Source: Christensenellales bacterium (lineage in GTDB: Bacteria; Bacillota; Clostridia; Christensenellales; UBA3700). Taken from it: 64,000 nucleotides of DNA. The translations under genes were made by a program, and so were the position numbers. The notes below the pieces were generated by a model. It searched no databases, was not told the origin of the DNA, and saw nothing but the letters and a program-made list of their open reading frames with translations. Each line of letters starts with the position of its first letter. The first letter of the stretch is position 1. The stretch spans positions 106,555 through 170,554 of the forward strand of contig JBJETT010000004.1 in the NCBI GenBank assembly GCA_051883455.1, read 5' to 3'. Positions 37,836 to 40,011 of this stretch are shown piece after piece.

Positions 37836-38048
37836 CTCTCTGTTTTTTTATTATATGATGAGTACGTTTTGGTTGTGAAGTTTACTCTTATATGCAAAAA
37901 TTCTATTTGATATGGTAGAATGATAATAAGTTGGAACGTTGACGGCAATACGTTACATATATGCTATTTTGTCAAGTGTAGAATTGTTAGGGAAATTTTG
38001 ACCTTGACAGTGAGGAAAGATAGTAATAAAATATCGTTGAGGTGAATT

Positions 38049-39551
38049 ATGAATTTTTGCGTAAGTGCTAGCGTGATGAAGGAGAGCGATAGACTCACCA
38101 TAGAGGGTGGCGTTGGTGGCGATATCTTAATGCAAAGAGCCGCTCAATGCGTCTACGATAGCGTGGATTGGACTAGCAAAAAGATATATATCGTATGCGG
38201 CAAGGGCAACAACGGCGGTGACGGCTATGCTTTGGCGTGCATTTTGGCGGAAAATGGGTATGATTTTTGCGTATTTGCCGTGGGAGAAAATAGGTCGGCT
38301 ACGAGCAAGATTTACGTAGACAAATTGGACAAGCTCGGCGTCAAGGCGAGAGATATTTCGCAATGCGACTACGACTGCGATATACTCGTCGATTGCATAT
38401 TCGGCGTTGGCTTCGATAGGCAAGCCGATAGCGCTACACAAAAGATTTTTGACCAAATCAACGCTTGCCGTGCATATATCGTGAGTGTGGATATTCCTAG
38501 CGGACTAAATAGCGACAACGGACTAGGCAAAGACTGCGTGAAAGCCGACCTAACCGTAGCTATCCAAAGCCTAAAACGCGGACACTTGCTATCTTACGGC
38601 AAGGATAAGTGCGGAAAAATTGTCGTTGCCGACATAGGTATAGAGATTGTCGGCGAGAGAGAATATATCGTAGATAGAGAATATTGCGCGGACTGTTTTG
38701 CTCCAAGGCTCAACAATACCAATAAGGGAAGCTACGGCAAGAGCGTCATTATTGGAGGGTGTGCCCAATATATCGGGGCGGTCAAACTTGCTCAAATGGG
38801 CGAGGCGGCTCTTAGATGCGGATGCGGACTCAACTGCGTTGCCGTGCCAAGCAGTTTGGCGGACAACTTGAGAAATTGCGTGGTCGACAGTACGATTTTT
38901 CCTATGGCAAGTAGGGACGAGCATATAATCTTTGATAAGCCGGCATTGGATAGGCTGGTGCAAGGCGCAACCGCCGTTGCCGTGGGTATGGGAATGGGCG
39001 AGAGCTTGGACGATAATAGAGCCGTGATAAGTTATCTTCTAGCCCACTTTGACGGCAGTATTTTGATAGACGCCGACGGACTCAATAGTCTGCAAGGCTA
39101 CGAATATTTGCTAGACGATAAAGTAGCTAGAGTAGTGATTACCCCTCACCCTAAGGAGATGTCTAGGTTGTGCGGTCTAAGCGTGTCCGACGTGCTTGCT
39201 AACCCCGTGGGCGTTGCCGAAATATTTGCTAGAGAGCATGGAATTACCGTTTTGCTCAAAGGTACGTCCACAGTCGTTACCGACGGACAAGATACGTGTA
39301 TCGTGGCTAGCGGCACTCCCGCACAAGCCAAAGGCGGGTCGGGCGACGTGCTGTCGGGCGTGATAGTAGGCTTACTCGCAAGAGGTATCGAGCCTATAAA
39401 GGCTGCCTCAACGGGCGCGTTTATATGTGCCGATAGCGCCAAAAAAGCAAGCGAAAAATATGGAGAATATGGGACGCTTGCTTCGGATTGCGTAAGAGAA
39501 GTAGGGGAAGTTGTCCGCGATTTAGAAAGTATAGCAAGGGGGATAGAATAA
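38049..39551 (+). CDS. nnr: Bifunctional NAD(P)H-hydrate epimerase/dehydratase
   Basis: CGKGNNGGDG, DCIFGVG, VDIPSG, IDADGL, TPHPKEM, GGSGDVLSG. Confidence 0.95.
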   Translation: MNFCVSASVMKESDRLTIEGGVGGDILMQRAAQCVYDSVDWTSKKIYIVCGKGNNGGDGYALACILAENGYDFCVFAVGENRSATSKIYVDKLDKLGVKARDISQCDYDCDILVDCIFGVGFDRQADSATQKIFDQINACRAYIVSVDIPSGLNSDNGLGKDCVKADLTVAIQSLKRGHLLSYGKDKCGKIVVADIGIEIVGEREYIVDREYCADCFAPRLNNTNKGSYGKSVIIGGCAQYIGAVKLAQMGEAALRCGCGLNCVAVPSSLADNLRNCVVDSTIFPMASRDEHIIFDKPALDRLVQGATAVAVGMGMGESLDDNRAVISYLLAHFDGSILIDADGLNSLQGYEYLLDDKVARVVITPHPKEMSRLCGLSVSDVLANPVGVAEIFAREHGITVLLKGTSTVVTDGQDTCIVASGTPAQAKGGSGDVLSGVIVGLLARGIEPIKAASTGAFICADSAKKASEKYGEYGTLASDCVREVGEVVRDLESIARGIE

Positions 39552-39574
39552 AATCAATCATACTTGTCCACAAT

Positions 39575-39603
39575 AACCATTGTCGCTATCTTGTCATACA
39601 ATA
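39575..39603 (+). promoter_or_regulatory. sigK-like promoter AACC-N16-CATACAATA upstream of mazF
   Basis: Matches the B. subtilis sigK consensus mACm-N16-CATAnnnTA; the -10 CATACAAT also fits sigE. Confidence 0.5.
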
Positions 39604-39633
39604 GGATAGGGCAATTCAACGAGTGGAGAGACT

Positions 39634-39975
39634 ATGATTAAGAGAGGAGAACTGTATTACGCAGACCTTAGCCCCGTGGTAGGAAGCGAACAAGGCGGTG
39701 TAAGACCCGTACTCATTGTCCAAAACGATATTGGCAATAGACACAGCCCTACGATTATTGCCGCCGCCGTCACGTCTCAAATCAACAAAGCCAAACTTCC
39801 TACGCATATCGAGCTGTCAGCCAACGAGTACGGCTTGCCAAAAGACTCGGTGGTGCTTTTGGAACAAATCAGAACGCTGGACAAACAGCGCCTGAGAGAA
39901 AGAATAGGCGAATTGCCAACGGATATGATGACCAAAATCAACCACGCATTGCTGATAAGTCTCGGATTTTTTTGA
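39634..39975 (+). CDS. mazF: MazF/PemK (NdoA/EndoA) endoribonuclease toxin with no adjacent antitoxin
   Basis: [50 protein letters not shown] closely follows B. subtilis NdoA. Confidence 0.96.
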
Positions 39976-39981
39976 TAACGG

Positions 39982-40011
39982 TGCGACGCTCAAGAGGCGT
40001 CGCATTTTTTT
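39982..40011 (+). terminator. Intrinsic terminator after mazF
   Basis: TGCGACGC-loop-GCGTCGCA plus TTTTTTT. Confidence 0.85.

Follow-up and report, generated by a model that had tools for sequence, protein, structure and literature searches.

A solitary mazF gene with sporulation-type promoter elements in its leader in a Christensenellales genome

The 64,000-nucleotide stretch analysed here (hereafter the window; positions 106,555 to 170,554 of contig JBJETT010000004.1, assembly GCA_051883455.1, from a Christensenellales bacterium) carries a mazF gene, encoding a toxin of the endoribonuclease type, with no antitoxin gene beside it. The short leader that separates mazF from the upstream gene nnr holds two promoter-like elements, which we call P1 (of the forespore sigF/sigG type) and P2 (of a sigK-like, mother-cell type). 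We consider it probable, judging from the comparisons described below, that antitoxin control of this MazF has been replaced by sporulation-specific and compartment-specific transcription. In the mechanism that we propose, control of the toxin would have passed from an antitoxin protein to transcription, with mazE and its promoter replaced in the leader by P1 and P2. MazF would then be made only in sporulating cells, that is, in the forespore and probably in the late mother cell, and the mRNA started at P1 would carry at its 5' end a conserved stem-loop, probably with a stabilising effect. Destruction of mRNA, translational shutdown or death would be a programmed outcome in those cells, and the antitoxin might have become dispensable because RNA destruction and growth arrest are already the programmed fate of both compartments. 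The sigma factors that would use P1 and P2, the timing and compartment of expression, the ribonuclease (RNase) activity with its cleavage site and the physiological role are all what we infer from sequence.

The protein encoded by this gene, of 113 amino acids (aa), is a MazF toxin of the EndoA subfamily in which the catalytic and RNA-binding residues are kept, and RNase activity is predicted for it. It matches the PemK/MazF profile PF02452 over its full length (E=1.3e-36; residues 3-109 against positions 1-108 of 109), it is the sole PemK-family gene of the genome (a single match), and it aligns without gaps to the Bacillus subtilis EndoA/MazF structures 4ME7, 4MDX and 1NE8 (E~4e-47, about 70% identity). 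A first-pass annotation of the locus had described an NdoA-like toxin with five residues equivalent to those of B. subtilis, and the gapless alignment shows all five to be kept: R24, T47, K52, H58 and E77 correspond to R25, T48, K53, H59 and E78 of the B. subtilis protein, the numbering being shifted by one residue.

No antitoxin was detected in this genome, which amounts to 1.43 Mb in 12 contigs and is 93% complete. The profile search for ndoAI/mazE that the annotation had proposed gave no match: with a profile of 15 cognate antitoxins against the six-frame translation of the genome the best hit had E=0.26, a second profile search of the genome returned 0 matches, and tblastn with the toxin-binding C-terminal peptide of the antitoxin found nothing in it. 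Proteins matching RHH_1 (ribbon-helix-helix) numbered 0 in the genome, and there was no small protein of the AbrB/MazE fold, the only PF04014 match being a 175-aa frame of the size of SpoVT. These negative searches agree with the earlier description of the toxin as solitary, and they yielded no candidate in the genome for the trans-acting or non-cognate antitoxin that had been offered as an alternative. Around the orphan mazF loci of related genomes, no antitoxin-profile match occurred within +/-1.5-6 kb of any locus, nor did any conserved partner open reading frame (ORF) adjoin mazF; clustering of neighbours gave only nnr, transporters and antisense shadow ORFs. A 38-aa ORF at 39488-39604 was considered as a hidden antitoxin and rejected, as it partly coincides with the end of nnr and resembles no antitoxin. 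A type II mazEF module is marked by an adjacent antitoxin gene, an antitoxin in the genome and an autoregulated palindromic operator, and none of the three is recognisable here.

The loss of the antitoxin is old and common to the whole family and most of the order, as follows from two samples, one of 61 relatives and one of 301 genomes of the order, the genomes of the latter being at least 90% complete. MazF occurs in 51 of the 61 relatives (47-99% identical); within the same family, represented by 36 genomes from 11 genera, it is present in 30/36, while the antitoxin is present in 0/36 anywhere in the genome. Order-wide, 232 of the 301 genomes have MazF and 31 have a cognate antitoxin, always adjoining mazF. 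These 31 antitoxins make up a decay series, with 17 full-length genes, about 14 partial or divergent ORFs of about 80 aa and one remnant with an in-frame stop. The toxin itself has fared quite differently from its neighbour: MazF is 73-99% identical across relatives, versus 33-50% for Nnr at family and order distances (in one example pair, 83% for MazF and 46% for the neighbouring Nnr). Because MazF is far better conserved than Nnr, we take the toxin to be under purifying selection without its partner.

In the antitoxin-bearing members of the order the genes are laid out as nnr-(tiny gap)-mazE-mazF, an apparent operon, with no alr between nnr and mazE, and because these loci read nnr-mazE-mazF, the arrangement in the window is best described as a deletion of mazE. 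In classical Clostridia (Romboutsia, Paraclostridium, Alkaliphilus, Acetivibrio and Caldicoprobacter) a ribbon-helix-helix antitoxin of 91-112 aa ends 4-10 bp before mazF, and most of these loci have a gene of about 390 aa, the size of alr, ahead of it. The gene order acpS-nnr-(..)-alr-ndoAI-ndoA, which had been taken as usual, is thus supported for most classical Clostridia as regards the alr-size gene before the antitoxin, but it does not describe this order, where alr is not found between nnr and mazE. Similarly, the proposal that alr-ndoAI had been lost or moved stands for the loss and not for the move, as no antitoxin and no homologue of the alanine racemase Alr were found in the genome (for the latter, a clostridial Alr was the tblastn query, with a limit of E<=1e-3). 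The alr gene may sit in the missing 7% of the genome, or D-alanine may be made otherwise. Decay intermediates beside mazF were seen at G145:C23:11232-11375 and at G039:C12:17210-17347 (locus L117), as well as in families f4 and f28; among them are ORFs of about 80 aa that match only positions ~26-82 of the antitoxin profile, and one remnant with an in-frame TAA. Loci L107 and L070 have short ORFs retaining only the toxin-binding C-terminal part of the antitoxin. At L111:5643-6050, a frame matching the antitoxin profile (positions 8-81) extends about 50 nucleotides (nt) beyond the start of mazF, and it may be an overlap or a fusion of antitoxin and toxin frames in that metagenome-assembled genome.

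P1 is the most strongly conserved promoter-like element of the leader, and it had not been noticed in the first-pass annotation; its use by a forespore sigma factor is predicted. In an alignment of 125-nt upstream regions from about 90 orphan mazF loci, the motif G(T/A/C)ATA-N14/15-G(G/T)CAACAATA recurred with a steady spacing of 14-15 nt and a variable spacer sequence. In the window its -35 element overlaps the stop codon of nnr and transcription is predicted to start at about 39580-39582 (other coordinates are given in Table 1). P1 fits the forespore consensus against which we compared it (-35 G(T/A/C)ATA and -10 G(G/T)nnAnA(A/C)T(A/T), 14-15 nt apart), and in a simple, crude consensus score it ties for the best site genome-wide; the same class of motif precedes sigG, spoVAC and a DUF1256/YyaC gene in this genome. 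A score of at least 18 was obtained for 67/87 orphan loci and for 0/20 regions upstream of mazE in antitoxin-bearing loci, and shuffled sequences almost never reach that value. P1 is also near-identical to mapped sigF/sigG promoters of Clostridioides difficile, namely the forespore promoters of spoIIQ (GTATA-N15-GTCAATAATC) and CD1229 (GTATT-N15-GTCAATAATG) and the sigG-dependent promoter of CD2841 (GAATA-N15-GGCAACAATAA) (PMC3789822, Table S6). A different pairing, in which the "TTGTCAACAATAAC" motif would serve as the -35 of the CATAYAAT box, was discarded, as it lies anywhere from 12 to 17 nt from that box, depending on the group, but always 14-15 nt from the upstream GTATA. Two antitoxin-bearing loci, L075 and L103, have a sigG-like motif, GCATA-N15-(T/A)GCAAAAATA, upstream of mazE with a score of 17.7; a forespore input into mazEF may therefore predate the loss of the antitoxin.

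P2 corresponds to the sigK-like motif AACC-N16-CATACAATA that had been annotated in the gap, where it is indeed present (AACC at 39575-78, CATACAATA at 39595-603), and transcription from it is predicted to start at about 39609-39611. It agrees with the sigK pattern that we used (-35 AC and -10 CATAnnnTA, 16-17 nt apart). Such a pattern is found 67 times in the genome and 69-75 times in shuffled genomes, which is chance frequency, and the chance of one occurrence in the 82-bp gap is about 0.1%. As the frequency in a single genome equals chance, the weight of P2 comes from its conservation in relatives. With CATAYAAT as the anchor of an alignment of 59 related leaders, 85% have A at -20, 89% have A or C at -19 and 53% have C at -18; the conserved AAC stands 16-17 nt upstream of CATAYAAT, and it is kept whether P1 lies as near as 13 nt or as far away as 72 nt. 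This profile fits the C. difficile sigK promoters GTAACA-N16-CATAnnAT. The sigK-like motif of the annotation is consequently borne out as a -35/-10 pair conserved at fixed spacing, and the comparison of synteny and promoters in related genomes that it had suggested showed nnr linked to mazF in most related loci and both promoter-like elements conserved.

Two other assignments of P2 were rejected. As a sigE promoter it would be expected to resemble the promoter of spoIVA in the same genome, a textbook sigE site, GCATATC-N14-CATACAAT, upstream of C4:87349 (at about -19200 in window numbering, and thus outside the window); the -35 of P2, however, is without the T of 'ATA', since T stands at -18 in only 8% of the loci, where the spoIVA promoter has GCATATC. 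It is the -35 element that separates the sigE type from the sigK type, because spoIVA shares the -10 of P2 (CATACAAT) but has a sigE-type -35. A standard sigA promoter is also a poor description of P2, which lacks both a TTGACA-like -35 at 17 nt and an extended -10. The spoIVA promoter offers a reference by which other mother-cell promoters of the clade can be calibrated.

The inverted repeat of the leader behaves as a covarying RNA stem and not as a conserved operator sequence. It had been annotated as an imperfect repeat over the sigK-like motif; it is real, and it is part of a longer hairpin (Table 1) with a folding energy of -13.9 kcal/mol (z=-4.67; 0/200 shuffles fold as well). Between lineages the stem sequences differ, yet the arms remain complementary. 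As loop lengths differ between lineages, arms were permuted across loci in place of column-wise covariation counts: for the arms flanking CATAYAAT in 47 dereplicated loci, the pairing energy averages -6.5 kcal/mol within a locus versus -4.1 between loci, and 0/20000 permutations reached the observed value. Because the hairpin starts at about the predicted start of P1, it would form the 5'-terminal stem-loop of the P1 mRNA. Scanning of the leader with Rfam at E<=10 gave no family, only two sub-threshold snoRNA matches that we regard as noise.

The genome has the sigma factors that P1 and P2 would need. SigF, SigE, SigG, SigK, a SigH-like factor and Spo0A are all encoded (top NCBIfam matches; SigE, SigK and Spo0A above the curated cut-off). 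The annotation had proposed a search for sigK and held that a genome devoid of sigK or sigE would speak against its idea; both genes are present, sigK being the ORF at C4:193508 (NF004471, 280 bits, above the cut-off of 252). The ORF at C4:268237 has its best match in the SigF/SigG subfamily with 293.6 bits, below the cut-off of 311, and passes the cut-off of the SigB/F/G subfamily, while that at C4:191353 matches SigG best, with 337.6 bits and below the cut-off of 372. The genes sigE, sigG and sigK lie within about 3 kb (C4:190586-193711, outside the window), sigF is at C4:268237, and the sigH-like gene and spo0A are at C12:43902 and C12:153955. A full sporulation sigma cascade in 1.43 Mb makes this a very compact sporulating genome. 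A second match to the Spo0A C-terminal domain was seen at C8:21869-22171 (E=1.2e-15), in a 173-aa frame with no apparent receiver domain, possibly a Spo0A_C-like DNA-binding protein that stands alone.

Across the order, MazF is kept or lost with sporulation, and the repeated co-loss of the two is striking. SpoIVA served as the endospore marker, and co-occurrence was assessed by Fisher test without correction for phylogeny. Both proteins were found in 51 of the 61 relatives and neither in 8, with MazF only in 0 and SpoIVA only in 2 (p=1.5e-8); in the 301 genomes the corresponding counts were 227, 43, 5 and 26 (p=2.7e-28, odds ratio 75). The 8 genomes with neither represent at least five separate lineages, including part of a genus whose remaining member keeps both. 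As to the exceptions in the larger sample, 3/5 of the genomes with MazF only are weak paralogue matches in one family, and 12/26 of those with SpoIVA only come from family f21 (G056, G114, G135, G170, G200, G215 and others). Because family f21 keeps SpoIVA and has mostly lost MazF, the toxin is not indispensable for sporulation in every lineage.

Several observations weigh against sporulation-specific control of MazF. The scheme used to score P1 was hand-made, and many of the genomic sites that it ranks high are probably noise within genes. TACAAT/TATAAT inside P2 could act as a weak sigA -10, and a few relatives have CGTA in the -10 of P2, a sequence outside the sigK/sigE consensus and similar to promoters of the extracytoplasmic function (ECF) type. 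The statistics on MazF and SpoIVA ignore phylogeny, and asporogenous lineages lose many genes. With the genome 93% complete an unrelated antitoxin could lie unseen, and non-homologous antitoxins are invisible to our searches. Finally, there is no terminator between nnr and mazF, so that vegetative read-through from the sigma-70-like promoter of nnr could express the toxin, and no conserved block on mazF translation was found. In the read-through RNA of this genome, and in that RNA only, positions 39553-39571, in the spacer and -10 region of P1, can pair with the region of the Shine-Dalgarno sequence and AUG at 39623-39639 (5 + 7 bp), which lowers the predicted accessibility of the AUG from about 0.5 to 0.01. 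As a conserved mechanism this translational block was rejected: across 66 loci, shuffled upstream sequence occludes the ribosome-binding site just as strongly (p=0.18).

On these grounds one might suppose that MazF is an ordinary, tolerated toxin expressed vegetatively, whether by read-through from nnr or from a weak promoter of the sigA type, harmless owing to a low level, attenuated activity or an unrecognised non-homologous antitoxin, and that the sporulation-like motifs are fortuitous or minor. The missing terminator, the good sigA -10 that TACAAT provides, the incompleteness of the genome and the position of mazEF directly after nnr, as an apparent operon, in antitoxin-bearing relatives all fit this explanation. 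We nevertheless find it unlikely, as the bipartite motifs of P1 and P2 are kept across dozens of divergent loci and are absent from antitoxin-bearing ones, MazF was co-lost with sporulation in several independent lineages, no conserved ORF stands on either side of mazF, and the genome has no ribbon-helix-helix or small AbrB-fold protein. The idea of the first-pass annotation, that the toxin was re-wired as a late mother-cell RNase, is closer to our own and keeps its developmental part, since the sigK-like motif is conserved. Taken as an exclusively late mother-cell role, though, it is incomplete, because the most conserved promoter-like element is of the forespore type. In its strict form this idea would have only P2 functional, the forespore motif inert and MazF serving mother-cell lysis or nucleotide recycling. 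The match of P2 to the sigK consensus and to C. difficile sigK promoters, with its AAC at fixed spacing, the presence of sigK and the mother-cell control of C. difficile mazEF are all in its favour; but P1, with its exact spacing in 67/87 loci, is conserved no less well, the covarying hairpin around the -10 of P2 needs a transcript that starts upstream, and some lineages have CGTA instead of CATA. P1 is also no by-product of P2, because it persists where 30-70 nt separate them. We regard the sigK-only explanation as quite unlikely.

The leader hairpin might itself be the regulator, a cis-acting RNA cleaved or bound by MazF in a self-limiting autoregulation or as a decoy, partly replacing the antitoxin. 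Its stem covaries while the loop sequence is conserved, and UACAU, the cleavage site of B. subtilis MazF, occurs in the leader loop of 39/64 loci but in only 1/64 coding sequences. Yet the mazF transcript of this genome has no UACAU at all, the -10 of P2 explains the conservation of the loop equally well, and the B. subtilis site may not be that of this MazF, all of which makes such a role very unlikely. Lastly, the locus might be what is left of a broken toxin-antitoxin module in decay, or an artefact of assembly, in agreement with the missing antitoxin and with the stop-interrupted antitoxin remnants of some relatives. This is already contradicted by the conservation data, and its probability is close to nil: the ORF is intact with its catalytic residues, MazF retains 73-99% identity over at least 100 genera and has diverged far less than its neighbour, and the same junction is found in independent assemblies. 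Sporulation-specific transcription in place of antitoxin control can also be extended into a bolder proposal, in which a type II toxin was domesticated throughout the order as a core sporulation gene with compartment-specific sigma factors as the safety device; MazF would clear forespore mRNA and impose dormancy and would aid the terminal shutdown of the mother cell, and the UACAU that most lineages have in the hairpin loop would give feedback by self-cleavage. We hold this full version to be rather improbable, and its self-cleavage feedback stays speculative because the transcript studied here has no UACAU.

The closest known system is B. subtilis EndoA/MazF (NdoA, YdcE) with EndoAI/MazE (YdcD). 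The toxins belong to the same subfamily, share the catalytic Arg and Thr, and their genes are ancestrally linked to nnr, as well as to alr in many Clostridia; whereas EndoA has the ribbon-helix-helix antitoxin EndoAI, the MazF described here has no such gene nearby or elsewhere in the genome. Classical mazEF loci have a TTGACA-type promoter and palindromes upstream of mazE, in contrast to the sporulation-type promoters of this leader. A solitary MazF with no adjacent mazE, linked to a developmental programme, is known in Myxococcus xanthus (MazF-mx), where control through a transcription factor acting as antitoxin has been proposed and disputed. It belongs to an unrelated lineage and developmental system, whereas the evidence here consists of promoter architecture and co-occurrence with endospore genes. 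In C. difficile, the mazEF genes (CD3462-CD3461) show lower expression when sigE is mutated, and the authors proposed that they take part in the death of the mother cell (Saujet et al. 2013, PMC3789822). That toxin, too, is an EndoA-type MazF encoded on the chromosome and connected with the sporulation cascade, but it keeps its antitoxin and its control is assigned to sigE, while here there is no antitoxin and the conserved elements are of the sigF/sigG and sigK types. B. subtilis SpoIISA-SpoIISB is also a sporulation-linked toxin-antitoxin system (mentioned in PMC3789822); the action of SpoIISA is tied to sporulation, as we propose for MazF, but it targets the membrane, belongs to a different family and has an antitoxin.

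The role of chromosomal toxin-antitoxin systems has long been argued, and there are few clear cases in which a toxin has its own physiological function. Our search of the literature found no paper on an antitoxin-less MazF under sporulation promoters. The Christensenellales loci amount to a natural experiment in which the antitoxin was deleted, with stages of its decay still visible in sister families: in about 200 of the 232 sampled genomes the toxin appears to be kept under strong purifying selection without an antitoxin, its leader would have gained sporulation-type promoters, and the gene vanishes when sporulation is lost. The suggestion from C. difficile that MazF acts in sporulation or mother-cell death thereby becomes directly testable. 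MazF may be considered a candidate RNase for the establishment of spore dormancy, and a likely addition to the minimal sporulation gene set of the small-genome uncultured gut Clostridia.

Table 1. Features of the nnr-mazF region, in window coordinates; promoter and hairpin assignments are predictions
Feature	Position	Strand	Description
nnr	38049-39551	+	bifunctional NAD(P)H-hydrate epimerase/dehydratase, 500 aa; upstream neighbour
P1, sigF/sigG-type promoter	39546-39575	+	-35 GAATA 39546-50, 15-nt spacer, -10 GTCCACAATA 39566-75
P2, sigK-like promoter	39574-39603	+	-35 TAACC, 16-nt spacer, -10 CATACAATA
Hairpin	39579-39615	+	5' end of predicted P1 transcript; P2 -10 at stem top and in loop
Shine-Dalgarno sequence GGAGAG	39625-39630	+	3 nt ahead of ATG; GGAG kept in relatives
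mazF/ndoA	39634-39975	+	EndoA-type endoribonuclease toxin, 113 aa
Intrinsic terminator of mazF	39980-40006 (whole feature to 40016)	+	strong; 11-bp stem, 6 GC pairs, 5-nt loop, then T-run

What the annotation had stated about the sequence of this locus was correct throughout. As it had noted, mazF follows nnr after only 82 bp (39552-39633) with no ORF able to be an antitoxin in the gap, and the terminator closing mazF was recovered by a terminator scan. The upstream gene was identified as nnr by Pfam YjeF_N and Carb_kinase and by NCBIfam TIGR00196/00197, and a promoter scan placed its own sigma-70-like promoter at 38004-38032. A misassembly of the junction, which the annotation had considered, is ruled out because the same nnr-(82-94 bp)-mazF arrangement recurs in four other assemblies of the genus.

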